From: a virus
Taxonomy: Duplodnaviria; Heunggongvirae; Uroviricota; Caudoviricetes
DNA length: 42,567 bases
IMG/VR virus record: IMGVR_UViG_2534681936_000017
Span: 1 to 42,567 of that record
Reading direction: 5' to 3' (one strand)
Made by a program: the position numbers and the translations under genes. This document shows, one piece after another, positions 1 to 40,791 of this stretch (positions are counted from its first letter, which is position 1; each line of letters opens with the position of its first letter). The notes beneath the pieces were generated by a model. The model saw nothing but the letters and a program-made list of their open reading frames with translations. It had not been told where the DNA came from and made no database searches.

Positions 1-144
1 CAGTTTTTTCAGTCCCGGCCTTTCGGACTTTGTACCGCTTATCTTGTCTTCAAAAATCAGCTCGCATCCTGCACAGTTCAGCGCATTACGTTGTAGATCT
101 GTGTTCTGGTCATTTGTTGACACACGTACATAGCCAATAAGCAT
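1..144 (-). CDS. pin: DNA invertase (Pin/Gin/Hin-family serine recombinase), N-terminal 48 codons only; gene runs off the left window edge
   Basis: Reverse-complement of 1-144 translates MLIGYVRVSTNDQNTDLQRNALNCAGCELIFEDKISGTKSERPGLKKL, the typical N-terminus of Pin/Gin/Cin invertases including the catalytic Ser in YVRVST. Not in the ORF track because truncated. Confidence 0.85.
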   Translation of the reverse strand, partial: MLIGYVRVSTNDQNTDLQRNALNCAGCELIFEDKISGTKSERPGLKKL

Positions 145-198
145 GGTAGCTCTCCCTGACAAAAGCAGGAATGATGCCATTTGCTCGTTATTTCTGTA

Positions 199-224
199 TT
201 TTCATAAACGTTGGTTTGGGAGAA
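199..224. repeat. Invertase crossover site (hix/gix-like 26-bp site), distal copy
   Basis: ttttcataaacgttggtttgggagaa; its reverse complement ttctcccaaaccaacgtttatgaaaa shares the first 14 nt with the site at 2069-2094 and fits the Hin/Gin half-site pattern (TTnTCnnAAACC, central AA). Confidence 0.7.
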
Positions 225-584
225 GCGGCAAAACGGGGGGTGGGAACAGGGGAAAATCAGATACCGGACATGGCTTCATTTAGTGGGGTGAGGGATTATT
301 ACGGAAAACAACTTTTGCCAGGAGGGTTGATACTTCAGTGGCTGACGATTCCATCAAGTGCAGCAGCCAAAGCTGTAACACTGAATAATGGTAATTATCA
401 GCTGTCAGGGTATAAATGGCCCCAGTCATTTGGTGTCCTGTTTGCTGTGTTTGCTACAAAAGTTTCTGGCTCGACTAACGAAGCATATGCAATCTCAGTT
501 AATCGTCACTCTACCGATGTAATTGTCACCTGGAATGCCCGTAAGGCTGATGATGTCCACATTTTAGGAATTGGGAAATTATGA
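199..584 (+). CDS. Alternative tail-fibre C-terminal domain (Sv'), promoterless; would fuse to the constant N-terminal part after inversion
   Basis: Frame is open from 150 through the crossover site (track ORF 171-584); no independent expression expected. Architecture inference by analogy to Mu G segment / e14 P segment. Confidence 0.55.
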
Positions 585-1000
585 AAATGAAATGGTCCCC
601 ATCTGTTCAGGGATTTTTCTCTGAAAATAACAGCGATATTCCCGATGATGCTTTCGATATTGAAGATGCTCTTTATTATGAACTTATGAATGGTCAGAGT
701 ACGGGGAAAATTATTATCAATAACCCGGATAACTACCCTGTACTTACTGAATATCCAGCGAAGACACAGGAACAGGAAATAGCTGAAGCGGAGGGAATGA
801 AAAGTATACTTATTGAACAGGCCAACGAATACATGAACAGTAAGCAATGGCCTGGTAAAGCCGCTATTGGTCGTCTGAAAGGTGAGGAACTGGCGCAATA
901 TAATTTGTGGCTGGATTACCTGGACGCACTGGAACTGGTGGATACCTCCAGTGCCCCAGATATTGAATGGCCTACGCCTCCGGCAGTTCAGGCCAGATGA
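581..1000 (+). CDS. Alternative tail-fibre assembly protein (U'-like)
   Basis: 139 aa; C-terminus [14 protein letters not shown] matches the conserved end of the minus-strand Tfa ([14 protein letters not shown]); start overlaps Sv' stop (ATGA). Confidence 0.7.
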
Positions 1001-1574
1001 CATCAGGCGCGGTGCTGGTATCTGTTGCCGCCACCGCGTCAATGTAATCCAGCACAGCGTTAAGCCGGTTTTTTTCTGCCTGCATCAGCTTCCGTCCGGC
1101 CTGTAATTTCAGCTGAATCAGACTAATGGAAGCCATTGCAGCATCAATCAGTGACTGGCGCTGTGCTTCTGCCGCTTCTACTGCGGCGCTATGCTGTGCC
1201 TCGGTATCCGTGACCCATTTCTCACCATCCCATTTATCGTATGGCGTTAACGGGACGATAGTGGTTGTATTTTCAGGGTAATCACCCGGAGCTGTGATTT
1301 CTTTTGATTCTCCCGTTTCGGTGTTATAGACAACTTCTCCGCGATGGTCTGGCACATATTCCCATGAGTTTAAATCTGCCGAACGGCAGATTGCATAACC
1401 AGCCTTATGTGTGCCAGGAGCATCTAAACAGGAATATGCAGGGATACCGACACCCACAGCAAGATATTCAGTTGATGTGGAAATATATTCCCGTGTTTCA
1501 CCATCATAATTATAAACGGTAATATCTCCCGCCTTTGTGGTGATGAGTTCCTTATTTAATATAGCTTTATCCAT
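972..1574 (-). CDS. Tail-fibre assembly protein (Tfa/U-like chaperone)
   Basis: 200 aa, directly after the tail-fibre gene; conserved Tfa C-terminal motif; its 3' end overlaps the 3' end of the convergent U' gene by 29 bp. Confidence 0.8.
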   Translation of the reverse strand: MDKAILNKELITTKAGDITVYNYDGETREYISTSTEYLAVGVGIPAYSCLDAPGTHKAGYAICRSADLNSWEYVPDHRGEVVYNTETGESKEITAPGDYPENTTTIVPLTPYDKWDGEKWVTDTEAQHSAAVEAAEAQRQSLIDAAMASISLIQLKLQAGRKLMQAEKNRLNAVLDYIDAVAATDTSTAPDVIWPELPEA

Positions 1575-2437
1575 CAGGCAGCCCTTACGATATAATTAAA
1601 AGCGATGTTACGAGGACGAGTTTCTGTACCTACATTTCCACTAATTTCGCCAAAACGTTTTACACTACGAGTACTAATAGCTCGTAGTGAGGAAGGTACC
1701 TTAATACCGGGTTCGTCTGTTTTAACTATTCCCCCGTCACCGTATGTAGCCAGTATTCCTGGGTTTACGCCTTCCCGTGCACTTCCTGCGGCGAGTCCGC
1801 CCCCTGTCCATAATTCCATATAGTGTGCATGGTCCAAAATTGTGTGTGGCTGCCAATTAAGCAAAGCGCGACCAGTATCAATCCCGCGACCGTCATCCCA
1901 GCCACGAATAAATTCACCGCGTAAATCAGGCAATTTATTGGTCGGGTAAGCCTTTGCCAGTTCCGGGTATTCTTCAGCAGAAAAAGCCGCACCATTGCAT
2001 TTCAGCCAGCCTGTTGGCGGTGTGGCTGAAGGCCACGGAACAGGTACACCAACGGGTAACGCTGAGCCTTCTCCCAAACCAAGGTTTTCGAGAGCCGTTT
2101 TCACCGTACCATCCGATTTGATATCGCCAAACGGATTTTGGCGACTCAGGTATTCAGCAGCAAACCCCGATCCCAGCAATTCAACAAAACCGGGCAGATC
2201 ACCATTATCAAGCACATCCCGTTGTGTTTTATCACTTACAAACTGGGCCAGAGCTGCAGCAATAAAGCTGGCCTGCCGAATAACCTTATTGACTTGCGCA
2301 CTGGATGCTTTCCCTGCTGTAAATCCGGATAAAAGCGCAGGCAACGCTTCCCATTCCTCCTGCGACATAACATTGGCATTTCGATCAGTTGCAAACGCTT
2401 TAAAGTCATTTTTCGCCATCAGAGTAATACTCCCCAT
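1574..2437 (-). CDS. Tail fibre protein (constant N-terminal part about aa 1-120 plus variable C-terminal part inside the invertible segment)
   Basis: 287 aa; position before Tfa; crossover site lies in-frame at codons 115-123. Confidence 0.75.
   Translation of the reverse strand: MGSITLMAKNDFKAFATDRNANVMSQEEWEALPALLSGFTAGKASSAQVNKVIRQASFIAAALAQFVSDKTQRDVLDNGDLPGFVELLGSGFAAEYLSRQNPFGDIKSDGTVKTALENLGLGEGSALPVGVPVPWPSATPPTGWLKCNGAAFSAEEYPELAKAYPTNKLPDLRGEFIRGWDDGRGIDTGRALLNWQPHTILDHAHYMELWTGGGLAAGSAREGVNPGILATYGDGGIVKTDEPGIKVPSSLRAISTRSVKRFGEISGNVGTETRPRNIAFNYIVRAA
2069..2094. repeat. Invertase crossover site (hix/gix-like), proximal copy inside the tail-fibre gene
   Basis: ttctcccaaaccaaggttttcgagag, imperfect dyad around central AA; resembles hixL TTCTTGAAAACCAAGGTTTTTGATAA from memory. 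Encodes ENLGLGE in the tail fibre; the distal site encodes INVGLGE in the alternate reading frame. Confidence 0.7.
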
Positions 2438-3099
2438 GCCCCTACATCAAAACCACTGATGAATTCGTTATCCATATCAAAACCAAAAAATTTAGAGCCT
2501 TCCGATGGAGTTTCCACCGAAGGTGTTTCAATGCCCCCCGCCCATACCCCGGCGGCTTTTACTGTGAGATACCCCTGTTTAATTGCCGCAATTAACTCAC
2601 GCGATACATCTGAAATATCAGCATCAGGAAAGACCCAGACCGATATCGTCATGTCCTGGTTATCGACTATCTGCATTCGCAGCCCGGATCCTGCTGTTGC
2701 AGCGTCAAGAATTGCTGGAAGCGAATCATTCCGTCCGTCCCAGTTATTAATCGCAATCTTCGCTTTAAGGATGACACGATAAGTTTCATCGCTGAGGTAC
2801 ATGTATCCGGAATCAGGATCGTATGGCCCCTGCCATACACCCTGATCATATCCAAGCCCGTCGGTATCCCAGCTGAAATAGACACCTGAGATAGGCTGGC
2901 TGACAACACGGCTACGCCCGATCCACAATCCCAGAATGTCAAGTTGCACACCAACCGCAGAGTCAATATCAAATGCAGTAATCAGCCCTCTGGTGGCCGC
3001 CGCAACATCAATAAGCGGCCGGGTCATCAGATCAACATGTGCAAGAAATTTAGGTTTGGTGACGTGGTAGTTCGTGATTAGTTCGGTGTATTTGCTCAT
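2419..3099 (-). CDS. Tail/baseplate protein (Mu gp48-like, putative)
   Basis: 226 aa, position between baseplate J-like gene and tail fibre. Confidence 0.5.
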   Translation of the reverse strand: MSKYTELITNYHVTKPKFLAHVDLMTRPLIDVAAATRGLITAFDIDSAVGVQLDILGLWIGRSRVVSQPISGVYFSWDTDGLGYDQGVWQGPYDPDSGYMYLSDETYRVILKAKIAINNWDGRNDSLPAILDAATAGSGLRMQIVDNQDMTISVWVFPDADISDVSRELIAAIKQGYLTVKAAGVWAGGIETPSVETPSEGSKFFGFDMDNEFISGFDVGAWGVLL

Positions 3100-4295: not shown

Positions 4296-4648
4296 TACGC
4301 CTCCGATGTAACAGTCGTTATTCCATAAAGAGTGTCGATTTCAGCGGAAAACATGACACGTCGGGTCGTGGTATCCACCGTCGTATTGAAAGAGAGGATT
4401 GATTTAACGCCCCGCGTTTCGAGGATGCGCTTACGGATCGCCAGGTTGTAGGTTTCAGGCTTCTGCTTACCGAGTACGGACTGGATCCACGGAGTCCCCT
4501 CGGTGGTGTCGAGAAACCATTGCCCATACCACAATTCGAATCGCGTTTTTACCGCCTGCGCCACGGCCTCCGGTGAGTTAATCAGCCAGGTGTCATCACC
4601 GCTGCCAAAGGTGTAATCGCCATCGGCGTCTTCACGTCTGTATCGCAT
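4295..4648 (-). CDS. Baseplate protein (gpW/gp25-like, putative)
   Basis: 117 aa, position between spike/V-like and J-like genes. Confidence 0.5.
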   Translation of the reverse strand: MRYRREDADGDYTFGSGDDTWLINSPEAVAQAVKTRFELWYGQWFLDTTEGTPWIQSVLGKQKPETYNLAIRKRILETRGVKSILSFNTTVDTTTRRVMFSAEIDTLYGITTVTSEA

Positions 4649-5400
4649 CAGTTTACCCCGTCGGTACTGCTTCCACCGCGCTGAACACCACCATGAGTGT
4701 GCGTATCATCGATTGGCTTGCCGTTAGCCTTCACGCTCCCCAAGAACTCAACAGCACCAGTGATTTTTGAAGCCACACCAGAAACCACAGACCCCACCAT
4801 GCCCCCCATCCAGGTTAACAGGCCATGAATGGTTACTTTCTCAGAAAAATCAGCCAGAGGGGCAACCACATCAAGACCACCCGGAGCGACAATTTTAATT
4901 TTCCTGGTATCAGGATTAAGCTCAAAATAGGTGCTGCCGTCGTCACTACGCAACTGTGTGGCACTGGTATTAATACCGCTCATCTTCCTCGCCTGCGACT
5001 GGGGACCGACAATACAAAATGCATCCGATAAATCATGCATTCTGTCATCGACAGGCTCCTGTATCCCGCCACTCTGCCACCAGAAATCAATACAACGATC
5101 GGCAAAAATCACCAGACATTCATCACCGGCTTTAACCGGGAACGTTAGCGTACAGCCTCCGCCGCGCGGAAATACCACTGGCACATCCACCAGCAGGGGT
5201 AATGTCGTCGACTGGTTGATTCCATTTGAGTCCGGCTCATAGCCTTTAATCGCTGGTTGAACAACTACCGTTACCGTGTCCTGATCAAATGACTGGACGA
5301 TACCGGGCATAGAAACACGCAGCACCGACATGACAGAACCAGCAAGTCTTACATCGGCCTGTTCTTTACTGCCGAGTTGAGAGGAAAGTGAAACTGGCAT
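4648..5400 (-). CDS. Baseplate assembly/spike protein (gpV-like)
   Basis: Track ORF starts with GTG at 5445; ATG at 5400 with GGAG 5 nt upstream is the likelier start (MPVSLSSQ...). Confidence 0.55.
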   Translation of the reverse strand: MPVSLSSQLGSKEQADVRLAGSVMSVLRVSMPGIVQSFDQDTVTVVVQPAIKGYEPDSNGINQSTTLPLLVDVPVVFPRGGGCTLTFPVKAGDECLVIFADRCIDFWWQSGGIQEPVDDRMHDLSDAFCIVGPQSQARKMSGINTSATQLRSDDGSTYFELNPDTRKIKIVAPGGLDVVAPLADFSEKVTIHGLLTWMGGMVGSVVSGVASKITGAVEFLGSVKANGKPIDDTHTHGGVQRGGSSTDGVN

Positions 5401-5418
5401 ATTTTCTCCAGACATAAA

Positions 5419-5441
5419 AAACCCGCTCGACGGCGGGTTAT
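5419..5441 (-). terminator. Rho-independent terminator after doc
   Basis: Minus strand cccgc-N6-gcggg hairpin followed by TTTTTT, directly after the doc stop and overlapping the start region of the V-like gene. Confidence 0.5.
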
Positions 5442-5471
5442 ACACATTTTACGTTTACCGTTGATACGCTA

Positions 5472-5879
5472 TCAGTATCCAGTAATCGTGTCTGCCAGCA
5501 GCTCATTCTTATAATCTGACAAGAGTTTTAGTGCCAGTGCAGTATTATCACAATCAGCTTCTCCAGTAGCAGCAAAGATAGTCAACTTCACCAACTCCAT
5601 GGAGGTGTTAAGTTCATAGCCATTCATTAGCAAGAAAATGCTGGTGGCCTGGAAAGCTGTTCGCTTGTTGGCATCGTTAAAAGCGTGAGACTTCGCTATT
5701 GCTACCATATACATAGCGGCAAATTTAAATAAATCCTCACAGCCTTCATATATGTGCAGATTATGCACCCTGTTCAGGGCACCTTCGAGCTTACCTATAT
5801 CAGGCTGCCCGCTGTTCGGCAGCGTACTTTTCTGAATCGCAATAACCTCATCAACCGAAAGAAACGTAATCTCAGCCAT
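5472..5879 (-). CDS. doc: Doc toxin (Fic/Doc family, death-on-curing)
   Basis: 135 aa; contains HAFNDANKRTAF matching the Doc/Fic motif Hx(F)x(D/N)ANKR; start overlaps phd stop (TAATG). Confidence 0.85.
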   Translation of the reverse strand: MAEITFLSVDEVIAIQKSTLPNSGQPDIGKLEGALNRVHNLHIYEGCEDLFKFAAMYMVAIAKSHAFNDANKRTAFQATSIFLLMNGYELNTSMELVKLTIFAATGEADCDNTALALKLLSDYKNELLADTITGY

Positions 5880-6292
5880 TATTTATCTTCCAGTTTTTTT
5901 ATAATTTCCGCATGCTTAGTCTGAGTATGTTGCAAAGCTTTAATAAATGACTCTGATACGCCCTGCAGGGCAAGTGCAGCATTGGCAGCCTTCATCATTG
6001 CCTGGCGCGCCTCATCAGACTGCAGAAGGACATCTAATTGCTTAGTAAACTTCATGACTCCCTCCGTTACCTGTGGGGATAAATTAGATGAAATTAACTG
6101 TGCAAGATGCGCATCTATCGTTTTGTTTTGTGGCTTAATTTCTTTTCCAGACACCACCTTATCAACGGTTTTTGCACTGATAACAGTATCAGGCTTCCCC
6201 CGTTGCGTTACCGTTACACTCTCACCTGAGCGTAACAATTCCAGCGTGGCAGATAAATCCGAACGCATTTGTGTATAAGTAATGGTTTTCAT
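5879..6292 (-). CDS. phd: Phd/YefM-family antitoxin
   Basis: N-terminus MKTITYTQMRSDLSATLELLRSGESVTVTQRGKPDTVISA resembles YefM/Phd; start at 6292 has a GAGAGGG RBS; unusually long (137 aa) for this family. Confidence 0.8.
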   Translation of the reverse strand: MKTITYTQMRSDLSATLELLRSGESVTVTQRGKPDTVISAKTVDKVVSGKEIKPQNKTIDAHLAQLISSNLSPQVTEGVMKFTKQLDVLLQSDEARQAMMKAANAALALQGVSESFIKALQHTQTKHAEIIKKLEDK

Positions 6293-6303
6293 AGCACCCT
6301 CTC

Positions 6304-6315
6304 TGTACATGTACA
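6304..6315. promoter_or_regulatory. Perfect 12-bp palindrome TGTACATGTACA, candidate Phd/Doc operator
   Basis: Lies 12 nt upstream of the phd start codon on the coding strand. Confidence 0.35.
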
Positions 6316-6372: not shown

Positions 6373-6708
6373 TCACTTCACCTTCCGGCAATCATACGTC
6401 CAGAACTCCCGAGGCTCGTCCATATTTTTGCGGATAACTTCAACGTTGAGGATCGGCTTGCCATTTCTGGCCACAAAATCCATCCCTAACCAACGCCCAT
6501 TACCCGGAATCATCCATTGGATGTTCACATTGTCATAATCACCTTCCTGTTTGAGAAAGATGATTTTCTGTGTCTCCGGTTTCTGTCCATTAATCCTTGC
6601 AAGTCCGTCTTGCGCTTTCCAGTTGATCGTAAATGGTCCGCAACCTGTATCAGCAAAGGAAATGAAGGAGATACAGACAAGTAAAACTGTCAACAATAGT
6701 CTTTTCAT
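6373..6708 (-). CDS. Small secreted (signal-peptide) protein of unknown function
   Basis: 111 aa; N-terminus MKRLLLTVLLVCISFISFA is a signal peptide (not a canonical lipobox); start overlaps the stop of the upstream hub-like gene (ATGA). Confidence 0.55.
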   Translation of the reverse strand: MKRLLLTVLLVCISFISFADTGCGPFTINWKAQDGLARINGQKPETQKIIFLKQEGDYDNVNIQWMIPGNGRWLGMDFVARNGKPILNVEVIRKNMDEPREFWTYDCRKVK

Positions 6709-8044: not shown

Positions 8045-8698
8045 TCACCTTCCCAGAAATAAATTGCTCAAATACCCATCAACAGTGGAGATACCTTCTT
8101 GCGCCATCTGTGGCAGCGATTTCAGAATGGAATTATTCGGCGGCACCGTTGTTTTGGTGCCTGTATTCTGCACAGCAGACGTTCCGACTCCCTCGGTCAT
8201 ATTGTTTTTCGGGGCAACCCTGACTGACTGCGTGGAGGTAATAATTACTTCTCTGAGGGTAAGTGTCGCCAGAAGCACATTTTCACTACTCTTATCGGTC
8301 GTGACCTCCAGCGTTTTTATCAACATATTGTTGTAAATACGCTTGCCGGTTGTCACATCGAAAGGAATACGATTCCGCTGCAGGTTAAGCAGTTCCTGAT
8401 ACAGTTCTTTCGGGCTCAGCCCCAGTAAACTGGTAGCAGTCAGGTTACTGGCAAAATCAAGCAGCGATCCGCCTCCGGAAAAACCGGTTTCCATCACAAC
8501 CTCAGAAGGGCGCCTGAATGCGTGTTCTGATATGTAACCAGCGCCCTCACCACTGGCACCAGCATTCGTGGGCTGTTCAACCGGATGTTCCGTAATTTCC
8601 AGGGCGTCAGTGTGCTTTTCGGTAATAACCACATCAGGAATAATGATTCCTATTGAGCGGGTTCGCTGCTGCAGTAAAACAGATAAAAAGTCCATCAC
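8045..8698 (-). CDS. Tail protein (putative)
   Basis: 217 aa, immediately after the tape measure gene with a 4-nt overlap. Confidence 0.45.
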   Translation of the reverse strand: MMDFLSVLLQQRTRSIGIIIPDVVITEKHTDALEITEHPVEQPTNAGASGEGAGYISEHAFRRPSEVVMETGFSGGGSLLDFASNLTATSLLGLSPKELYQELLNLQRNRIPFDVTTGKRIYNNMLIKTLEVTTDKSSENVLLATLTLREVIITSTQSVRVAPKNNMTEGVGTSAVQNTGTKTTVPPNNSILKSLPQMAQEGISTVDGYLSNLFLGR

Positions 8699-10701
8699 GC
8701 AGGCCCTTTCAATTGCTGTACCGCCCTGGCATTTACAGCCCCCTGCTTGTCAGCAATCAGATTAGCCGCCTCCTGAGGGTTGTTAACTCCATGAACATTT
8801 ATAACAGTCTGCTGGTTAAGGCTGCCAGCGGCGGCCTGATACGCCAGCGGGCTGTTCCAGTTTGAATAACCTTCTTTGCGCGCCATCGACTGCATCAATG
8901 CTCCCATAGTCCGGGGATCTGTAAGATTCAATATTGCATTCGGTGATACTCCCATCCATTTCGCAACATCCTGTGCATACTTTTTCGGATCGTTGTTATC
9001 ACCTGCCGGGGCCCAGGTACTGACAATATCCTGAATAGTCTGTAATGCCCGTCCGGTTGTTTTCCCGGTAAAGTAACGCATGAGCTGGTTTTTCATCGCC
9101 TCCCAGCCCTCAAGCGCTGATTCGAAAAACCGGAACCCTTTACCGCTCACCGGGCGAATGTTCCCGGGGTTATTGTTGCGATCAGCAAGAGTGCCGCCGC
9201 CGGGGATGTCGGGCTGGACGTTGGAGCCATGCACTACACCGTTACTCTGTCCCTGCCGGATAACTTTACCGGATCCCCCGTGCAACCAGTCCATCCACGC
9301 AGGCCATTCACGGACCTCACTGACATCCCTGCGTCCGATATCTGTTTTTATACCAATAGCAGCCAGCGTGTCGCCGATAATTCGCTTCGTATACATCAGT
9401 GAAGATTTTGCGCTATCGGCAATATTTTCTCTGTCACTAACAATATAGCCCGCGTAAAGCGCCCACAATTTAAGCCAGGGTGGGACCGGTAAACCTGATA
9501 TTTTTCCGAAAGCCCCCAGAACCTTGGATGCCCAGACACCCGCGATGAATGTACCGAGGATTTCCAGTGCATTTTGCCAGCCGCCAACACCATCTTTTAG
9601 TTCCAGAAGGTGATCACGAAGCCAGGTGATCGCATCCTTCGCTTTATCTATTGCCGGTTGCCATTTTTCCCAGTCGATAAGACTGTTACCGCCTTCTTTC
9701 CATGTTTTGTAGTCTTCCCACAAGAGACCGAGAGCCACGATCAGACCGGTAATCAGCCCTATAGGTGACATCCAGAAAGTAGAGTTAAGTATCCGCATGG
9801 CGACAACCAGACCGCCGATAACCTCTATCAGGGTTTTCGTTTCGGCATCCAGTTTCCCCCACCACTCGATGATATCTCCGACACCATCGACTATCCGAAA
9901 TGCTACCCGCCCGACTATCTCACCCAGCCAGAGGATCCCCTTTATGACCTTTGTGATGGTGACTTCAATTTTGGGAAAATTTTCAATTATCTTTTTGCGC
10001 AGGTTATCAATCTGCCCCGCCAGTCCGTCCGCAAGATTCGATCCGATTTTGTCCCGCGCCATCCCGGCCATTTCACCGAGCGATTTCAGCGAGGTCATAA
10101 ACCGGTTTGACGATAAGGCAGCCTGATCGGCATTAAATCCGATCGCTTTCACCATTTCTGAATACTGAGCGCTGAACTGCCCCACTCCGCGACGCATAGC
10201 CATCAGGGTATTTTCGTCAATGCCCAGCATCTGCGCATACTGGTTAGCCCGGTAATACGGCATGCTGCTGAGTTTCTGTCCAACGCCCGTAAAGATAGCA
10301 GCCATGTCACGCATGTTACCGCTGGCATCACGGGTCTGTACGCCCAGGCGATTCAGAAAGCCTTCTGCTCCGGGATTGTTACGAATAAACCGGGAGAGGC
10401 TTTCCAGAGAAGATCGCGCAGCGTCCACGCTGCCGCCAACCTGCGAAACCGCATAGCCAATAGACTGAATTCCCTGGACTGTCGCGCCGGTGCGCTGTGA
10501 CGCCCAGTAAAGATTATCCAGACCGGAGGCGATCTTAGCCGTGAAGGCCACCACGGACAGCGCGGCTCCTTCAACGGCCAGCCCCATTTTGATGACATTT
10601 GCAGTTGTACCGGCGAGGACAGAACCGAATTTTTTCGCTCCTGCATCATCCACACTGAAGCCAAGCGAGACGAGGAAATCTTTAATAGTTTCAGCGTTCA
10701 T
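8695..10701 (-). CDS. Tail tape measure protein
   Basis: 668 aa from ATG 10701 (strong GGAGAGAGGA RBS); long helical Ala/Gly-rich protein with internal hydrophobic segments; located after tube and chaperone genes. Confidence 0.8.
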   Translation of the reverse strand: MNAETIKDFLVSLGFSVDDAGAKKFGSVLAGTTANVIKMGLAVEGAALSVVAFTAKIASGLDNLYWASQRTGATVQGIQSIGYAVSQVGGSVDAARSSLESLSRFIRNNPGAEGFLNRLGVQTRDASGNMRDMAAIFTGVGQKLSSMPYYRANQYAQMLGIDENTLMAMRRGVGQFSAQYSEMVKAIGFNADQAALSSNRFMTSLKSLGEMAGMARDKIGSNLADGLAGQIDNLRKKIIENFPKIEVTITKVIKGILWLGEIVGRVAFRIVDGVGDIIEWWGKLDAETKTLIEVIGGLVVAMRILNSTFWMSPIGLITGLIVALGLLWEDYKTWKEGGNSLIDWEKWQPAIDKAKDAITWLRDHLLELKDGVGGWQNALEILGTFIAGVWASKVLGAFGKISGLPVPPWLKLWALYAGYIVSDRENIADSAKSSLMYTKRIIGDTLAAIGIKTDIGRRDVSEVREWPAWMDWLHGGSGKVIRQGQSNGVVHGSNVQPDIPGGGTLADRNNNPGNIRPVSGKGFRFFESALEGWEAMKNQLMRYFTGKTTGRALQTIQDIVSTWAPAGDNNDPKKYAQDVAKWMGVSPNAILNLTDPRTMGALMQSMARKEGYSNWNSPLAYQAAAGSLNQQTVINVHGVNNPQEAANLIADKQGAVNARAVQQLKGPA

Positions 10702-10878
10702 TATCCTCTCTCCATTTCTCAATGCGCCGCTGGTTATCCGCTTTTACCGCCAGATGGTCATTCAAGAGAGCAATGTCGTACAAATCGACAGAGCCATCTT
10801 TAAGTGCTGTATAAGGAATTAACCCGGCGTCAACCGGATTGAGAAGGTAGGACAGCCCGTCCGGCAGGCTGTTAAACG

Positions 10879-11331
10879 TCAGCCCTGTTGCAGGCTCTGC
10901 GTCGTGCTGGTAAGGGGTGTAGGCAAAAAATTTCCCAGCGAATCGGCGACCACCCGCGCCACCAGATGAAGCATGACCAGCAGGTCAATATCATCAAACA
11001 TCAGTTCGCCCCGGGTAAATACCGGCACCCATCCGTCCATATGACGCCGCGATACCACCGCAAGACAGGGATGAATAATCGCATCGGTGTCATCTTCGGT
11101 CAGGGAAGACAGTTCCTCAGCGATACGCGGGAGCATGGTTTCAAACACCGGTTTTAACTGCTCGAATTTCACGGTGTCGATTTTGCCGTCAGCAGGCAAA
11201 CGGGAGCGAATGCTCCCGAAATCTGACATCATTCCTGCCAGCACCGGCAGAAGTTTGCGGGTCACTTTCAGCTGGTCAAAAACGCTGAGTTTTGCCACGC
11301 GATATTTCACGCCTTTGATTTCGAATTCCAT
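10879..11331 (-). CDS. Tail assembly chaperone (putative)
   Basis: 150 aa between tube and tape measure genes; the 156-bp gap before the tape measure gene could hold a frameshift extension (not verified). Confidence 0.5.
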   Translation of the reverse strand: MEFEIKGVKYRVAKLSVFDQLKVTRKLLPVLAGMMSDFGSIRSRLPADGKIDTVKFEQLKPVFETMLPRIAEELSSLTEDDTDAIIHPCLAVVSRRHMDGWVPVFTRGELMFDDIDLLVMLHLVARVVADSLGNFLPTPLTSTTQSLQQG

Positions 11332-22701: not shown

Positions 22702-22887
22702 TCAGTCCCGAACGAACGTAACCTTCGTGTTTGTCGCTCGCCGTACAAGGCGCGCCGCTTCGCGTTGCATTTCATCGATAACTTTTGGCGTCATCGGCTG
22801 ATGCGCATATTTACGTTCAATCTCTGCAAAAATCCCGTTCATCGTTTCGCTGTCTGGTGGGATAACTTCAACGTTTAATCGTGCCAT
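22702..22887 (-). CDS. Small hypothetical protein after Rz1
   Basis: 61 aa with normal composition, in late-operon orientation, convergent on the ART-like gene; weak RBS. Confidence 0.35.
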   Translation of the reverse strand: MARLNVEVIPPDSETMNGIFAEIERKYAHQPMTPKVIDEMQREAARLVRRATNTKVTFVRD

Positions 22888-23146
22888 TGGTTTGTGCTGT
22901 CCTGTTTTTCTCAAAAGTCCTGATATCAGCCTTATCCCTGTTGCACTGTGCTAACGCTGACAGCAACGCAACATTCAGGTTAAGGCTGGCTCCCCACGTA
23001 AACGGGTCGGGTAAATCTGGCTGGGGTGTTTCATCCGTCAGACTGGCTGGTAACGGAACGACCGGCACCGACACGTATACCGTTCGCGTATTCGTGCAAC
23101 CGCTTAACTGCGCCAGAAGGAACGATACGAACAGCGCAATCATCAT
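22868..23146 (-). CDS. o-spanin (Rz1-like outer-membrane lipoprotein)
   Basis: Lipobox LAQLSGC, Pro-rich mature part; overlaps the 3' end of the Rz gene in a different frame. Confidence 0.6.
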   Translation of the reverse strand: MMIALFVSFLLAQLSGCTNTRTVYVSVPVVPLPASLTDETPQPDLPDPFTWGASLNLNVALLSALAQCNRDKADIRTFEKNRTAQTNGTIKR

Positions 23147-23423
23147 CCGCAACAGCCACTTTGATATCTTCCTGGGTTCTCTGTGACTCCAGTGCGATCT
23201 GCTGTTTTGCATGCTGGTTAGCCTCTATAACTGTGTTGATGATTTGCAGTGATTGCAGGACGTTACGGGTAATGGCTGTTGCTGATTCAGCATTTCGTAC
23301 AGCCTCATCAGCGCGCTCCTTTTCATGCTGATATTTGTTGTAGTAATGCCCGGCAGACCAGATGAAAGAACCGATGACGGTAACAAAGAAGGCAACAATA
23401 ACCAGCTTATATCTCAGCTTCAT
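23031..23423 (-). CDS. i-spanin (Rz-like)
   Basis: 130 aa, N-terminal TM helix then charged coiled-coil-like region; directly after the endolysin. Confidence 0.65.
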   Translation of the reverse strand: MKLRYKLVIVAFFVTVIGSFIWSAGHYYNKYQHEKERADEAVRNAESATAITRNVLQSLQIINTVIEANQHAKQQIALESQRTQEDIKVAVADDDCAVRIVPSGAVKRLHEYANGIRVGAGRSVTSQSDG

Positions 23424-23883
23424 TTACCACCCCACCAGCTTCTTTAAATCGGGCAATCAGGTCACCGATTCTATGTTCATACTGACCGTAACCAGCACCC
23501 GGCAACGAAGCCCAGATATTGCTGCACCGGTCGATTGCCTGACGAATATCGCCGCGGTCAATCATCGGTAAAGCGCCACGCTCTTTAATCTGCTGCAGCG
23601 CTACAGCATCCTGACTTTCTGGAGAAAAATCTTTCAGGCCAAGTTGCTTGCGGTAGGCATCCCACCAGCGTGAAAGAAGCTGGTAACGTCCGGCGGCTGT
23701 TGATTTGAGTTTCGGATTTAGCGTGACAAGTTTGCGGGGGTGATCGGAGTAATCAGTGAACAGTTCGCCACCGACAATAACATCATAACCGTGATTTCTG
23801 GTTTTCTGCCGTCCGTTATCTGTTCCTTCTGACCATGCCACCATATCAAGGAAAGCTTTACGCTGGGAATTCAGTGTCTGCAT
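23407..23883 (-). CDS. Endolysin, lambda R-like lytic transglycosylase
   Basis: 158 aa; NSQRKAFLDMVAWSEGTDNGRQKTRNHGYDVIVGGELFTDYSDHPRKLV... is near-identical to lambda R as recalled. Confidence 0.9.
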   Translation of the reverse strand: MQTLNSQRKAFLDMVAWSEGTDNGRQKTRNHGYDVIVGGELFTDYSDHPRKLVTLNPKLKSTAAGRYQLLSRWWDAYRKQLGLKDFSPESQDAVALQQIKERGALPMIDRGDIRQAIDRCSNIWASLPGAGYGQYEHRIGDLIARFKEAGGVVNEAEI

Positions 23884-23886
23884 TAA

Positions 23887-24237
23887 TTACTCCTTATGGG
23901 CACCGAACTTGTTACCGATGACCCTCATTGCCGCACCACGAATAGCATCAACACCAATCAGCCCCACCCCACCACCAATGGCAACAGAAAGTGATTTAGG
24001 CCATCCGACATACTCAAGCGCGGATGCAAAGGTCAGCGTCAGAGCACCACAAAGCAGAATCTCAAGCGTTTTTCGTTTCCAGCCGCCGCCACCGCCAAAA
24101 TAGGCAATGCGCAAACCAGCCATAATAATTGACATAACCACTGCGCCCAGCGGCGTATCTCCACGCCACCAACTTTGTAAGAGCTCCAGTAAGTCAGGCC
24201 AGGAATGAGGGGCATTGTGCATTTTCATAAGCCTCAC
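23887..24237 (-). CDS. Holin (three TM segments, dual-start MRLMKMH)
   Basis: 116 aa, three hydrophobic segments, charged C-terminus, immediately upstream of the endolysin. Confidence 0.75.
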   Translation of the reverse strand: MRLMKMHNAPHSWPDLLELLQSWWRGDTPLGAVVMSIIMAGLRIAYFGGGGGWKRKTLEILLCGALTLTFASALEYVGWPKSLSVAIGGGVGLIGVDAIRGAAMRVIGNKFGAHKE

Positions 24238-28262: not shown

Positions 28263-28418
28263 TTACTTCTCAGATTCGTAGTCTACGAAGACAGCGACCT
28301 CCGTCTGGCCGGTTCGGATTCGTACCTCGCAGAGGTCTTTCCTCGTTACCAGTGCCGTCACAATGACGGTTAAACAGATGACGATCAGGGCGATTAACAT
28401 CGCCTTGTGCTGCTTCAT
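28263..28418 (-). CDS. hok: Hok/Gef-family type I toxin
   Basis: MKQHKAMLIALIVICLTVIVTALVTRKDLCEVRIRTGQTEVAVF... is the Hok/HokD signature. Track ORF 28263-28475 extends upstream in the same frame. Confidence 0.85.
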   Translation of the reverse strand: MKQHKAMLIALIVICLTVIVTALVTRKDLCEVRIRTGQTEVAVFVDYESEK

Positions 28419-35753: not shown

Positions 35754-38700
35754 ATGAGCACCGATAAACAAGTTTACCCACTGTATTACGAAGCAAAAAA
35801 TGACAAAGTAAGAAAACGTCTCGGTATTAAAGGCGGTTTCTACTGGGCTGAAGCGAAAAAATTATCCATTGCCATCTCCCGTGGTGCTGTTGCGATTGAC
35901 GATGCTGGCTACGATGAAGATGACTTTAAAAAACCTGTTCGCGTCAATTTGCCCGTTGTTGATGACCTTCCACCAGAAGGCGTATTTGATACGGAATTCT
36001 GCAACCGTTACGAAAAAGGCGGGGAAGATGGCATCACAATGGTATTTATCGCGCCCTCATCCTCTGCGCAGGACAAACCAGCCAGCACTGACAATACCAA
36101 TGTTAATGGCGAAGACATGACTGAGATTGAGGAGAATATGCTACTCCCGATTTCTGACCAAGAGCTGCCCATTCGCTGGCTTGCTCAACACGGCAGCGAA
36201 AAACCGGTAACGCACGTTTCACGCGACGAACTCCAGACATTACATATTGCACGGGCTGAAGAACTACCAGCTGTTACTGCCCTGGCTGTTTCCCACAAAA
36301 CCAGCCTGCTCGACCCGCTGGAGATTCGCGATCTTCACAGACTGGTTCGTGATACTGACAAAGTTTTCCCTAATCCAGGCAATTCAAGTCTGGGGCTGAT
36401 GACTGCTTTTTTCGAAGCATACCTGGACGCAGACTACACCGATCGCGGTCTGCTGACAAAAGAGTGGATGAAAGGAAATCGTGTTTCACGCATCACTCGC
36501 ACGGCTTCCGGTGCTAATGCTGGCGGCGGGAACCTCACCGATCGCGGCGAAGGTTTCGTCCACGATCTGACGTCACTGGCACGCGATGTAGCCACTGGCG
36601 TACTGGCCCGTTCAATGGACGTGGACATTTATAACCTTCATCCGGCACACGCTAAACGTGTCGAGGAAATTATCGCTGAAAATAAACCGCCCTTTTCTGT
36701 TTTCCGCGACAAATTCATCGCCATGCCTGGCGGGCTGGATTATTCCCGCGCCATCGTGGTTGCGTCCGTAAAAGAAGCACCAATTGGGATCGAGGTTATC
36801 CCCGCACACGTCACTGAATATCTGAACAAAGTACTGACTGAAACCGATCATGCCAACCCTGATCCGGAAATCGTAGATATTGCCTGCGGTCGCTCCTCTG
36901 CCCCGATGCCGCAGCGGGTAACAGAAGAAGAAAAACAGGATGATGAAGAAAAACCGCAACCATCTTGCGCAATGGCAGATGAACAGGCAACGGCTGAAAC
37001 AGTGGAACCGGATGCAACTGAACATCATCAGGACACGCAGCCGCTGGATGCTCAGTCACAGGTAAATTCTGTTGATGCGAAATATCAGAAACTGCGGGCA
37101 GAACTCCATGAAGCCCGGAAAACCATTCCGCCCAAAAATCCTGTCGATGCCGACAAATTGCTGGCTGCCTCTCGCGGAGAATTTGTTGAGGGGATTAGCG
37201 ACCCGAATGATCCGAAATGGGTGAAGGGGATTGAAACCCGCGATTCAGTGAACCAGAACCAACAAGAATCGGAACAGAACGACCAGAAAGCGGAACAAAA
37301 CAGCCCAAATGCGTTACAAAACGAGCCAGAAACGAAACAGCCTGAACCAGTGGCGCAACAGGAAGTGGAAAAAGTTTGCAATGCCTGCGGTCAGTCTGGC
37401 GGGGATAACTGCCCTGACTGTGGTGCGGTGATGGGCGACGCAACATATCAGGAAACATTCGATGACGAGAATCAGGTTGAAGTTCGGGAAAATGAGCCGG
37501 AGAAAATGGAAGGCGCTGAACATCCGCACAATGAGAATGCTGACAGCGATCCGCATCGCAATTGCAGTGATGAAACTGGCGAAGCGTCAGCTCCTGTAGC
37601 AACTGAAATCATGTGGCCGTCATATTTCGAGCCAGGCCGCTATGAAAACCTCCCGAACGAGGTTTATCACTCCGCCAACGGAATAAGCAGCACGATGCTG
37701 AAGGATGCCCGTATCAGCCTGATGTATTACCACGGGCGGCACATTGCCGGAACTATTCCGAACGAGGAAAGTGATGCACTGCTGCGTGGGCGGATCATTC
37801 ACAGCTATGTTCTGGAAACGGATAAATTCGCTGATGAATATGCCATTCCGGTACCGGTTCCTGAATATGTGGTTACTACTTCTAACGAACTGATCGCCAT
37901 CATTAAAAAACACAATGCCAGTCTGCCAGCACTGATGACACCAGAGCAGATGAAAGAGTGGATCGAAAGCTACAACAGCACTCTTATACAGCCACTGTCT
38001 GTAAGTGCTGGGGCCGAAGAAACAGGCATCCTTTACGGTTCGCTTCCGGTGGAATTTCGGCGTATTCCTGAGGGGGAAAAACACACAGCATCAGCAATGA
38101 AAGCCTGTATTAAAGAATACAACGCAAGCCTCCCTCCTCTGTTGAAAACCAGTGGAGCACGGGAGCAGCTTCTGGATCAAATTGAAACTGTAGATCCAGA
38201 ACTGGCAAAAAAAGAACGTGCTAAATCTTTGCCTTACAACATCAGTGGCACAAAAGAGCAATTAACCGAAATCGCACGGAAAATTCGCCCGGAACTGGTG
38301 ACACTGGAGGACTGGCAAAAACGCCAGCAAGAAGAAAACGCCGGGAAAACGTTTATCAGTCCGGATATGTATGAACAGGCAAAAAATATTCACGCGGCAC
38401 TGCAAAACAATACCGATGCAGCAAGGCTACTCAACCACCCGGATCGCAAATCTGAAATCAGCTATTTCGGGTTTGATGAAGAAACCGGGCTGGAAATCAG
38501 GGTCCGTCCTGATATCGAAATCCGGCTGCCATACGAAAGCATTTGCGCTGACGTGAAGTCAGTCAGCCTCGGTTATGTGCGGCAGGAACGACTTAAAGAT
38601 CGCCTGCACCGTGAAATTATTGAGCGTGATTATCACCTCAGCGCCGCAATGTATTGCGATGTGGCAAACCTGGACAAATTTTTCTGGATCTTCGTCAACA

Positions 38701-38900
38701 AAGATGCTGGCTATCACTGGGTGGCAGTCGTGGAAGCCTCGCAGGAACTCCTTGAACTTGGTCGACAGGAATATCGCCGGACGCTACACCAGATAAACGA
38801 AGCGCTGGAGACAAACAACTGGCCAGCACCGATTACCGAAAGTTATACCGACGAATTAAACGACTTTGATCTTCGTCGTCTTGAAGCACTGAGCATCTGA
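35754..38900 (+). CDS. recE: RecE-family exonuclease (exonuclease VIII-like), mosaic with a divergent C-terminal nuclease domain
   Basis: 1048 aa; central region ([16 protein letters not shown]...[12 protein letters not shown]...[18 protein letters not shown]) matches K-12 RecE as recalled; the C-terminal about 400 aa differ from K-12 RecE. Confidence 0.8.
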
Positions 38901-38911
38901 GGAAGGACACA

Positions 38912-39964
38912 ATGAACGAATTAACTCAACAAGAAAATATTAACTCTAATGTTGCGGTTTTCAGCCCTCAGTCTCTGGCTGCAATTCAGACGTTTTCTCA
39001 GGTAATGGCTTCCGGCATGGCTACTGTACCGGAACACCTCCGGGGAAATCCATCAGACTGCATGGCCATAACCATGCAGGCGATGCAGTGGCAAATGAAC
39101 CCTTACGCAGTAGCTCAGAAAACTTTCGTTGTGAATGGTGTACTCGGATATGAAGCGCAACTGGTTAATGCCGTAATCAGTACTCGTGGGCCGTTAACCG
39201 GGCGTATTGAATATGACTGGTTCGGGCCGTGGGAAAAAATTATCGGGAAATTTGAAATCAGGAAGAACGACAAAGGGAAAGAATATCGTGTACCTGGCTG
39301 GAAGCTGGTCGATGAAAACGGGATCGGAGTTCGCGTCCAGGCAACACTACGCGGAGAGAGCAAACCACGCGTACTGGAGTTACTTCTGGCGCAGGCCAGA
39401 ACACGTAACTCAACGTTATGGGCCGATGATCCTCGTCAGCAGCTTGCCTATCTGGCACTGAAACGCTGGGCGCGCCTTTATTGCCCTGAAGTGATTCTTG
39501 GAGTGTACACCCGGGACGAACTGGACGAACCACAGGAAAAAATCATTAATCCGGTTCAGGAACATAAAAACACATCCGCCTGCCGTGCGGAACGTGAAAC
39601 AACAATTATTGAGCAGGATGTCGGGGAAAACTGGATCAGTGCTTTCCGTGAACGTATTGAGCAGGCACAAAGCACCGGAGAAACAACAGCACTTCGGCAG
39701 GAAGTGGAAGAGCATAAAAATACACTTGGCGCTCTCTATACGGAACTTAAAGGAAAAGTGGTTCAGCGTCATCACCGTCTCAATGCTATTGCCCGTATTG
39801 AGAAGATGATAAATGACCTGCCTTCATCAGGTGATCCGGAAGCAGAACAAAAATTTACTGCTCTGGAAAATACGCTGAATGCTGCACGACCACATCTGGG
39901 AGAATTATATGAGGCGTATAAAACGACACTGACAGATATGAAACCAGAATATATCGGCTCCTGA
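38912..39964 (+). CDS. recT: RecT/Red-beta-family single-strand annealing protein
   Basis: 350 aa directly after recE (RBS GAGGAAGG); segment QLAYLALKRWARLYCPEVILGVYTRDE resembles the conserved Bet/RecT core; not the K-12 RecT sequence. Confidence 0.6.
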   Translation: MNELTQQENINSNVAVFSPQSLAAIQTFSQVMASGMATVPEHLRGNPSDCMAITMQAMQWQMNPYAVAQKTFVVNGVLGYEAQLVNAVISTRGPLTGRIEYDWFGPWEKIIGKFEIRKNDKGKEYRVPGWKLVDENGIGVRVQATLRGESKPRVLELLLAQARTRNSTLWADDPRQQLAYLALKRWARLYCPEVILGVYTRDELDEPQEKIINPVQEHKNTSACRAERETTIIEQDVGENWISAFRERIEQAQSTGETTALRQEVEEHKNTLGALYTELKGKVVQRHHRLNAIARIEKMINDLPSSGDPEAEQKFTALENTLNAARPHLGELYEAYKTTLTDMKPEYIGS

Positions 39965-40027
39965 TATTTACTATGGCGGTGTAGCCTCGCCGCCATAACA
40001 AAACTTTATTTTATGAGAGAAAAGACA

Positions 40028-40222
40028 ATGCGGTATGAAAAAGTCAAACCATGTCCATTTTGTGGTTGTCCATCAGTAACGGTGAAAGCCATTTCAGGAT
40101 ATTACCGAGCGAAGTGTAACGGGTGCGAATCCCGAACCGGCTATAGTGGAAGTGAAAAAGAAGCACTTGCAAGATGGAATAAACGAACTACTGGAAATAA
40201 TAATGGAGGTGTTCATGTATAA
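40028..40222 (+). CDS. lar: Lar/RalR-like restriction alleviation protein
   Basis: 64 aa from ATG 40028; MRYEKVKPCPFCGCPSVTVKAISGYYRAKCNGCESRTGY... with zinc-ribbon cysteines. Confidence 0.65.
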   Translation: MRYEKVKPCPFCGCPSVTVKAISGYYRAKCNGCESRTGYSGSEKEALARWNKRTTGNNNGGVHV

Positions 40223-40403
40223 AATTACCGCCACTATTGAAATGGAAGGTGGCACACCTACTAACTGGACAAGATATTCAAAATCTAAATTAACGAAATC
40301 AGAATGCGAAAAAATGCTCTCAGGGAAAAAAGAAGCAGGCGTTTCCAGAGAGCAGAAAGTAAAACTGATAAATTTTAATTGCGAGAAACTTCTGTCCTCG
40401 TGA
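40215..40403 (+). CDS. Small hypothetical protein (YdaC position)
   Basis: 62 aa, RBS GGAGG 6 nt upstream; overlaps lar stop. Confidence 0.4.
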   Translation: MYKITATIEMEGGTPTNWTRYSKSKLTKSECEKMLSGKKEAGVSREQKVKLINFNCEKLLSS

Positions 40404-40503
40404 GCTGCATTATATACAAATTAGAACTTCATAGCTGATTATTAAAAATCAACCACACCCGCCAGTATTCTGTATATTTACTGGCGGTCATATCGTAAGA
40501 GGT

Positions 40504-40791
40504 ATGGCAATGAATCTTGTGACACTCAAAACGTGGGGAAAACTCAGATATCCGGATAACCCACCATCAATATCAACGCTGAGACGATGGGCAAGGAATG
40601 GAAACATTTATCCTGCACCTGAACTACACGGGAGGAGTTACAGGGTGGTTCCGGAGGCTTTCTATATCAACCCAAATAAGGTTGATACCGATATAACACA
40701 CCATCAGCCTAATGGGCGACAAGGGAGAGACAGTCCGTTACTGGAGAAGTTAAAACATGCAGCGGAAAAAATACGATCCCAATTTGCCTAA
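40504..40791 (+). CDS. xis: Excisionase (Xis-like)
   Basis: LVTLKTWGKLRYPDNPPSISTLRRWARNGNIYPAPELHGRSYRV follows the lambda Xis pattern; 3' end overlaps the int start. Confidence 0.6.
   Translation: MAMNLVTLKTWGKLRYPDNPPSISTLRRWARNGNIYPAPELHGRSYRVVPEAFYINPNKVDTDITHHQPNGRQGRDSPLLEKLKHAAEKIRSQFA

Follow-up and report, generated by a model that had tools for sequence, protein, structure and literature searches.

An Enc34-type lysozyme-like domain near the C-terminus of an Escherichia coli prophage tape measure protein, a probable virion-associated peptidoglycan hydrolase

Does the tape measure protein (TMP) encoded by an Escherichia coli prophage have a separate domain in its C-terminal part, and what might such a domain do? 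A sequence-only reading of the 42,567-nucleotide stretch analysed here (IMG/VR record IMGVR_UViG_2534681936_000017, positions 1 to 42,567; hereafter the window) had proposed that the last ~200 residues are globular and differ from a helical, Ala/Gly-rich body, and that they may be either enzymatic, possibly peptidoglycan-active, or a receptor-interaction module.

Judged by its sequence and its neighbours, the gene is that of a tape measure protein. The product matches phrog_2276, 'tail length tape measure protein', over residues 8-673 (E 3e-248), and the genes on the minus strand are ordered sheath, tube, tail assembly chaperone (PF21822), DUF6889, TMP, Dit-like tube initiator (PF21821), Pam3 gp18-like plug and hub, which places the TMP after the tube and chaperone genes and ahead of those for the baseplate/tip. 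Matches to Pfam PhageMin_Tail (22.6 bits, curated cutoff 33.2) and to TIGR01760 (18.5, curated cutoff 28.8) were weak and fell under the cutoffs. In RefSeq the gene is named either 'hypothetical protein' or 'lytic transglycosylase catalytic', the latter on 99%-identical E. coli genes. The mechanical open reading frame (8695..10722, minus strand) opens with a TTG at 10722 and encodes 675 residues, and its numbering is used throughout. Translation probably begins at the ATG at 10701, which has a Shine-Dalgarno sequence (GGAGAGAGGA) just 5' of it and coincides with the start of the RefSeq CDS WP_000990888.1 (668 aa).

Re-translation of positions 8698-9300 on the minus strand gave the last 201 residues of this frame, and the peptides ADRNNNPGNIRP and GFRFFESALEGWEAMKNQLMRYFTGK are both found in its translation. 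The stretch consists of three pieces, a linker, a domain and a tail (Table 1). AlphaFold2, run from residue 495 with an alignment of 47 sequences, returned a model with a mean pLDDT of 90.5 and a pTM of 0.76; the single-sequence model (pLDDT 40.4) was set aside in its favour. The linker has a low pLDDT (52-73 over the first 20 modelled residues) and is poorly conserved in the alignment, while the domain that follows is predicted to be all-helical. In the tail, an extended stretch, QQTVINVHG, is modelled without regular secondary structure, and the helix after it is predicted with a pLDDT of 80-94. The folded domain that had been proposed is therefore real, but it occupies only residues 511-632 and is flanked by other elements; we dropped the reading of the last 200 residues as one domain because the final ~43 form a separate element common to TMPs of the SLT type. 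The supposed contrast with the body did not hold up, since Ala and Gly make up ~11% each in both parts and the C-terminal domain is itself all-helical. The two parts do differ in Asn (9.5 versus 5.2% in the body) and Pro (5.5 versus 1.0%). We also considered whether the domain boundary bears a mark of horizontal transfer or a change in composition, and rejected this, as the GC profile across the gene has no clear break.

Table 1. Features of the tape measure gene and its product. Residues are numbered in the 675-residue frame, and positions are those of the window.
Feature	Residues	Position	Strand	Remarks
Tape measure protein gene		8695..10701	-	668 aa, ATG at 10701
N-terminal TMP body	8-361	9640..10701	-	common to TMPs with a different lytic domain
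Hydrophobic segment	297-336	9715..9834	-	Kyte-Doolittle 19-residue window maximum 2.0
Second, weaker hydrophobic segment	388-406	9505..9561	-	Kyte-Doolittle maximum 1.48; putative role only
Gly/Ser/Asn-rich linker	475-510	9193..9300	-	low pLDDT, poor conservation
Enc34-type (PHA02564) lysozyme-like enzymatically active domain (putative), ~122 aa	511-632	8827..9192	-	
Family signature N-N-N-P-G-N	516-521	9160..9177	-	shared with Enc34 and Kayfunavirus Gp29
W570, counterpart of Enc34 Trp79, a substrate-positioning aromatic	570	9013..9015	-	aligns with 7q47 chain W80; codon checked
Y582, counterpart of Enc34 Tyr95	582	8977..8979	-	aligns with 7q47 chain Y96
E617, counterpart of the proposed catalytic Glu131 of Enc34	617	8872..8874	-	aligns with 7q47 chain E132; codon checked
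Conserved C-terminal tail, ~43 aa	633-675	8698..8826	-	extended stretch, then helix 649-671

The C-terminal 201 residues have no match in Pfam or NCBIfam (Pfam to E<=1), and a Pfam scan of the 47 aligned homologues gave scattered chance matches only, among them a weak one to GH73 Glucosaminidase at E 0.047. A domain search had been suggested, with the absence of any hit counting against the proposal; here such a test would give a false negative, because both libraries lack a model for this domain. [quoted passage not shown] The similarity in sequence is far beyond chance, and on sequence and predicted fold together domain 511-632 is homologous to the Enc34 catalytic domain. The predicted fold is all-helical, like the alpha lobe of lysozyme, without the beta lobe; the best fold neighbours outside the Enc34 family are GH73 glucosaminidases, not transglycosylases, MltE being reached at a Foldseek E of ~5 only. 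Hits from a word-indexed protein search were for the most part fragments or close relatives; diversity came from an exhaustive HMMER search, in which 4019 representatives of clusters at 50% identity matched at E<=1e-3, 498 of them at E<=1e-10. The Enc34-type family is very large (about 4000 such clusters); Pfam has no model for it, and RefSeq names it inconsistently. The Enc34 catalytic domain is experimentally muralytic, on Gram-negative peptidoglycan (PMC8943055); its catalytic residues were assigned by structural superposition, not mutagenesis, co-crystallisation with sugars failed, and its authors conclude a glucosaminidase-like mechanism. M4Lys of phage BSPM4, a relative, is reported as a glucosaminidase and endopeptidase, and bond specificity across the family is unsettled.

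The residues proposed for catalysis in Enc34 have their counterparts here: E617, Y582 and W570 align with Glu131, Tyr95 and Trp79, if the numbering of the 7q47 chain runs, as we take it to, one higher (+1) than that of the Enc34 paper. In 150 domain sequences the Glu is 99% conserved (it is invariant in alignment A1) and the Tyr 97%, and the Trp column holds W in 73% and Y in 25%; within the N-N-N-P-G-N signature, N518 is invariant and P519, G520 and N521 are conserved at 92-96%. E617, which is E610 in the 668-residue numbering, is the final residue of a predicted helix, 603-617. Near-invariance of the Glu, the Tyr and NNNPGN across sequences this diverse points to active-site selection, and the assignment offers a specific putative active site, E617.

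The TMP of the Salmonella phage SEN34 (Brunovirus) is an ortholog, 79% identical over residues 8-361 here (SEN34 1-354), with similarity stopping beyond. The two proteins are of nearly the same length (669 in SEN34 versus 668 aa), lie in the same gene neighbourhood, share homologous C-terminal tails and carry a lytic domain in the same place (residues ~510-605). In SEN34, however, the module is Pfam SLT (PF01464, a GH23 lytic transglycosylase; residues 510-604, E 1.9e-23). With that match as the positive control, SLT was found neither in the domain studied here nor in any of the 47 family members, and no sequence similarity between the two modules was detectable. DNA of the TMP body occurs in 311 E. 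coli genomes, versus 50 for the DNA of the domain. An HMM of the tail matches residues 623-668 of the SEN34 TMP (E 5.6e-18), and the tail motif is present in 53 of the 80 homologues that reach that far; as judged from these comparisons, the tail does not depend on which type of lytic domain is present. TMPs of Klebsiella and Hafnia phages are similar to the SLT-carrying TMP of SEN34.

Homology to Enc34, the kept Glu/Tyr/Trp and the position held by SLT in the SEN34 TMP lend the enzymatic option of the sequence-only reading support at the level of sequence and model, and nothing supports a receptor-binding role. Most probably, then, the C-terminal part of the TMP carries a virion-associated peptidoglycan hydrolase, an Enc34/PHA02564 lysozyme-like domain that would cut the cell wall during genome delivery. 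The domain lies in frame within the TMP and is separate from the endolysin of the phage. Its presence in particles is assumed from the identity of the TMP, and its enzymatic activity, bond specificity, timing and location in the virion are what we infer.

The same biological role could be served with other chemistry by another family if the domain were a lytic transglycosylase, GH23/SLT-like and yielding 1,6-anhydro-MurNAc products, which we consider unlikely. The RefSeq name on the 99%-identical genes, the annotation of PHROG relatives as 'tail injection transglycosylase', the fact that the domain stands in for the SLT domain of SEN34, and the distant similarity of Enc34 to the GH23 enzymes gp144 and MltC would all agree with it. 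The SLT-negative scans, the ranking of GH73 glucosaminidases above MltE among the fold neighbours and the mechanism concluded for Enc34 nevertheless argue for a different enzyme.

We find it improbable that the domain is inert as an enzyme and serves structure or binding instead, for example as a peptidoglycan-binding, baseplate-docking or receptor-interaction module. Such a module would fit a region that includes a conserved, probably structural tail, and activity of the TMP-borne copies is deduced from their sequences; but an inert module would hardly account for the near-invariant residues described above, the docking tail is an element separate from the domain and common to SLT-type TMPs, and a TMP enclosed in the tube cannot touch a surface receptor before ejection (general tail architecture; Pam3 structure).

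The prophage has its own lysis cassette at positions 22868-24237 of the window, 14 kb away, with a holin (phrog_126), a GH24 endolysin (phrog_90, E 5e-63) and an Rz-like spanin, so the TMP domain is not needed for lysis. That it is an extra endolysin for lysis from within, freed by proteolysis or made from an internal start, is very improbable: the free-standing members of the family (Enc34, M4Lys, Chi-like phages, MP22 'V: endolysin') are endolysins and many short database entries hold this region alone, but several of these are 'partial' or lie on ~1-2 kb contigs (others are on long contigs), the cassette is complete, and the domain is encoded in frame within a late structural gene, with the TMP tail after it. 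The Enc34 ORF39 endolysin itself is a free 26-kDa protein of a lysis cassette, with the domain at its N-terminus and a two-helix membrane domain at its C-terminus, whereas here the domain is part of a 675-residue tail protein, near the C-terminus and ahead of the TMP tail, in a phage with a separate endolysin. Kyte-Doolittle analysis of the TMP revealed no hydrophobic segment C-terminal of the domain. As the domain is embedded in the TMP and the lysis cassette lies elsewhere, the TMP shares the family and is not an Enc34-type endolysin.

A virion-associated hydrolase of this kind could act as follows. The conserved tail, on the far side of a domain preceded by a flexible linker, probably anchors or docks the TMP at the tube-initiator/hub end, in the baseplate core. 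Once the sheath contracts and the spike and hub are lost, the TMP would exit the tube C-terminus first, and the domain, then exposed in the periplasm, would cleave glycan strands locally. E617 would act as the general acid, with Y582 and W570 positioning the glycan; the most likely chemistry would be the one put forward for Enc34, that of a beta-N-acetylglucosaminidase-type glycosidase. The hydrophobic segments N-terminal of the domain might help to build a conduit across the inner membrane, residues 297-336 offering room for about two membrane-spanning helices and being a candidate membrane-insertion region on sequence grounds. A point against this scheme is that three to six folded domains of ~14 kDa are hard to fit in the lumen of the tail tube.

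TMPs with a peptidoglycan-degrading module that are ejected ahead of the DNA are familiar from T5 (Pb2) and mycobacteriophage TM4 (Tmp); these phages are siphoviruses, and their modules belong to other enzyme families (a metallopeptidase; Rpf-like or peptidase motifs). Our literature search, which was limited and is not proof of absence, found no report of Enc34/PHA02564 domains in tape measure or virion-associated proteins. The same domain occurs in Kayfunavirus Gp29 (PDB 9VVP chain L, assigned through tblastn; profile E 1.4e-32), an ejected virion protein annotated as 'DNA ejectosome component' or 'internal virion protein D'. There it is the N-terminal domain of a 1295-aa podovirus internal core protein, whereas the TMP described here belongs to a myovirus. 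Its length and annotations make Gp29 the likely counterpart of gp16 (internal virion protein D) in T7. The N-terminus of T7 gp16 is reportedly an SLT-type domain (work by Moak and Molineux, 2000, 2004), and Gp29 appears to be a second case of an Enc34-type module standing where other phages have SLT. The domain is also found fused to PG_binding_1 in proteins of ~250 aa, and tblastn with it reaches genes of Vibrio phages (Autolykiviridae-like) and, in a Pseudomonas phage, a gene with the annotation 'protein P5'. [quoted passage not shown]

The feature is sound but fairly ordinary, a module of a known kind, and it leaves current concepts of phage entry unchanged. With it, the Enc34 family comes to include ejected tail proteins besides endolysins, and the TMP-borne members may, on sequence, represent a large unexplored pool of small lysin domains active on Gram-negative bacteria, with potential for use. 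It also provides a clear example of wall-degrading cassettes, SLT and Enc34-type, exchanged at a single, fixed site in TMPs that are otherwise orthologous. A broader reading, which we regard as speculative and on balance doubtful, is that Enc34-type domains are cell-wall enzymes of the injection stage, a very large class for which models are lacking, and that they replaced SLT modules on more than one occasion, as exchangeable cassettes, in myovirus TMPs and podovirus ejectosome proteins, with a bond specificity (glucosaminidase, or dual glucosaminidase/endopeptidase as in M4Lys) unlike that of all virion-associated lysins characterised so far. If true, it would mean a distinct way to breach peptidoglycan at entry.

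The C-terminal part of the tape measure protein (TMP) of this E. coli prophage contains an Enc34-type (PHA02564) lysozyme-like domain, and the best-supported reading is that this domain acts as a virion-associated peptidoglycan glycosidase, as suggested by homology, predicted fold, active-site conservation, the swapping of the lytic cassette and redundancy with the lysis genes. Judged by sequence, the product of the 675-aa ORF is the TMP; it matches phrog_2276 (E 3e-248), in which PHROGs already groups this architecture, and matches Pfam PhageMin_Tail and TIGR01760 weakly, under their curated cutoffs. The surrounding genes run sheath (DUF3383), tube (DUF3277), tail assembly chaperone, DUF6889, TMP, Dit-like tube initiator, Pam3-gp18-like plug and E217-gp41-like hub, and the tail is of the Pam3/SEN34 simple contractile type. 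The true start is likely the ATG at 10701, eight codons into the ORF; it is preceded by GGAGAGAGGA, and an identical E. coli protein, RefSeq WP_000990888.1 (668 aa), begins at the same ATG. Residues are numbered here on the ORF (RefSeq number = ORF number minus 7). Over the TMP gene the window is 100% identical to the prophage of E. coli FDAARGOS_946 and O55:H7 DEC5A.

Features of the prophage, with positions in the window
Feature	Position	Strand	Remarks
Putative invertible region	~1-2440		pinE ends near 144 (RefSeq annotation)
Spike gene	4648-5445		
Doc/Fic toxin	5472-5879	minus	
Phd/YefM antitoxin	5879-6310	minus	
111-aa protein	6373-6708	minus	phrog_3443 (unknown function), E 2e-42
TMP ORF	8695..10722	minus	675 aa, TTG start
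Last 201 TMP residues	8698-9300	minus	from translation
DUF6889 ORF	10691-10855	minus	overlaps TMP start
Tail assembly chaperone	10879-11331	minus	PF21822
Lysis cassette	22868-24237		holin (phrog_126), endolysin, Rz/Rz1
Prophage endolysin	23407-23883	minus	RefSeq 'glycoside hydrolase family 24 protein' (GH24); phrog_90, E 5e-63
Hok/Gef family toxin gene	~28263-28418	minus	RefSeq coordinates converted by +85
RecE, Rac-like	within right arm 35754-41833	plus	1048 aa; Exonuc_VIII + PDDEXK domain
RecT	38912-39964	plus	
Lambda-type integrase	40757-41833	plus	

The sequence-only reading had proposed a distinct globular domain in the last ~200 aa, and the peptides it quoted are present within the last 201 residues of the translation. 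AlphaFold2, run from residue 495 with an alignment of 47 domain homologues, gave a pLDDT of 90.5 and a pTM of 0.76 (a single-sequence run, with a pLDDT of 40, was not the model used). The first ~15 modelled residues show little order (mean pLDDT 52 for 495-504 and 73 for 505-514); residues ~511-632, encoded at window 8827-9192, are predicted to form a compact, all-helical core (pLDDT 93-98), followed by a stretch without regular secondary structure and a long helix, 649-671. A folded core is thus present, but the region comprises three elements, not one. Nor did the supposed contrast with an Ala/Gly-rich body hold, Ala and Gly each making up about 11% of both parts; what sets the C-terminal region apart is more Asn and Pro. 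The last ~46 residues (…NQQTVINVHG…NARAVQQLKGPA) form a conserved element of their own, whose motif recurs in 53 of the 80 homologues reaching that far. Hydrophobic segments lie upstream (residues 297-336 and 388-406).

The domain search proposed in the same reading was empty in Pfam and NCBIfam, and a Pfam scan of the 47 homologues returned no family matching in a meaningful way; PHROGs and PDB sequences, however, gave matches. These were phrog_873 'endolysin' (E 8e-48), phrog_7182 'tail injection transglycosylase' (E 4e-16) and two PDB chains, 7q47_A (E 2e-5) and 9vvp_L 'Gp29' (E 1.9e-6), improved by the family profile to E 1e-26 and 1.4e-32. 7q47_A is the catalytic domain of the phage Enc34 endolysin, a family described in 2022. 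According to the paper on this domain (PMC8943055), its all-helical fold recalls the alpha lobe of lysozyme, and it lyses cells of E. coli, P. aeruginosa and H. alvei once their outer membrane is permeabilised. In superpositions Glu131 (its proposed catalytic residue), Tyr95 and Trp79 coincide with catalytic residues of GH73 and GH23 enzymes; the authors infer a beta-N-acetylglucosaminidase mechanism. In a 150-sequence alignment TMP E617, Y582 and W570 share columns with E132, Y96 and W80 of the 7q47 chain, whose numbering is probably that of the paper +1, as the construct spans 1-169 but the chain counts 170 residues. E617 is conserved in 99%, Y582 in 97% and W570 in 73% (+25% Tyr) of these sequences; N518 and G539 never vary, and conservation of A571, P572 and N577 reaches about 99%.

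The family is large (a search of 1.84 billion clusters made at 50% identity yielded 4019 representatives at E<=1e-3) and has no model in the Pfam-A and NCBIfam copies searched: curated domain libraries miss it. Among the 100 large top matches with a C-proximal domain, 52 resemble this TMP N-terminally. The domain also occurs as free endolysins (Chi-like phages, MP22), fused to PG_binding_1 (homologues P0036 and P0037) and internally in large virion proteins; it has been reported from PM2 P5 and a T6SS effector as well. It forms the N-terminus of 9VVP Gp29, a Kayfunavirus (T7-like) protein of 1295 aa whose annotations are 'DNA ejectosome component' and 'internal virion protein D' and which we regard as the T7 gp16 counterpart. 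T7 gp16 itself reportedly (Moak and Molineux 2000, 2004) has at its N-terminus an SLT-type transglycosylase that helps entry into cells with a more cross-linked wall.

In Salmonella phage SEN34 the TMP (669 aa) shares 79% identity with residues 8-361 and diverges thereafter; it carries Pfam SLT (residues 510-604, E 1.9e-23) in the same position, and both proteins end in a homologous tail (tail HMM against the SEN34 C-terminus, E 5.6e-18). Among complete E. coli genomes, DNA of the N-terminal half is found in 311 and that of the domain plus tail in only 50, other versions being annotated SLT or lytic transglycosylase. Some homologues (P0005, P0007, P0008 and P0013) join the Enc34-type domain to a tail that hardly differs from that of the SLT-type SEN34 TMP (…QQQNTYNIYGG…ANARVLRNNQTGA); recombination breakpoints therefore appear to flank the lytic cassette on both sides.

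RefSeq names the gene inconsistently, 'hypothetical protein' for the identical copies in FDAARGOS_946 and DEC5A and 'lytic transglycosylase catalytic' for 99%-identical genes elsewhere. The latter name implies the same role by another family, an assignment not supported here: neither the domain nor its 47 homologues match SLT, and among fold neighbours GH73 enzymes come ahead of GH23 enzymes. An inert structural or binding module is unlikely, because the active-site residues are conserved and the probable docking tail is a separate element. An additional endolysin is likewise unlikely, since the domain is in frame within the TMP and the prophage lysis cassette is complete (its endolysin had no Pfam match at E<=1e-3, odd for a GH24 lysozyme).

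The prophage is a mosaic of a lambdoid early region and a Pam3/SEN34-like contractile tail, and the presence of RecE, RecT and integrase in the right arm indicates that the window covers most of it. The DUF6889 ORF, directly downstream of the chaperone, may be its frameshift extension, like G/GT in lambda. The Phd/YefM-Doc/Fic pair sits within the tail/baseplate operon, between hub and spike genes, an unusual location for a toxin-antitoxin 'moron'. Between it and the hub gene lies the gene for the 111-aa protein, which has a hydrophobic, signal-like stretch at its N-terminus (MKRLLLTVLLVCISFISFA...), a sole PHROGs match and no Pfam match; this may be a moron whose product is periplasmic or a lipoprotein, with a role such as superinfection exclusion. 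As RefSeq annotates the identical region in E. coli, the Pin-type invertase gene is followed by tail-fibre C-terminal segments in opposite orientations and tail-fibre assembly genes, an arrangement suggestive of a host-range switch by inversion of the Mu Gin/e14 Pin kind. RefSeq places the Hok/Gef gene of the identical prophage in the early/late junction region.

That TMPs and other ejected proteins can carry wall hydrolases is well established, and the sequence-only reading was correct about what is an ordinary feature; our literature search found no paper linking the Enc34-type domain to TMPs. The TMP C-terminus lies at the baseplate end of the tail, and on ejection the protein leaves before the DNA. 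In the Pam3 structure the TMP bundle is inside the tube, fixed on the baseplate. Upon contraction and release of the spike and hub, the C-terminal tail would let go, and the putative glycosidase domain would then reach the periplasm and open the sacculus locally, while the hydrophobic segments may contribute to the inner-membrane conduit.
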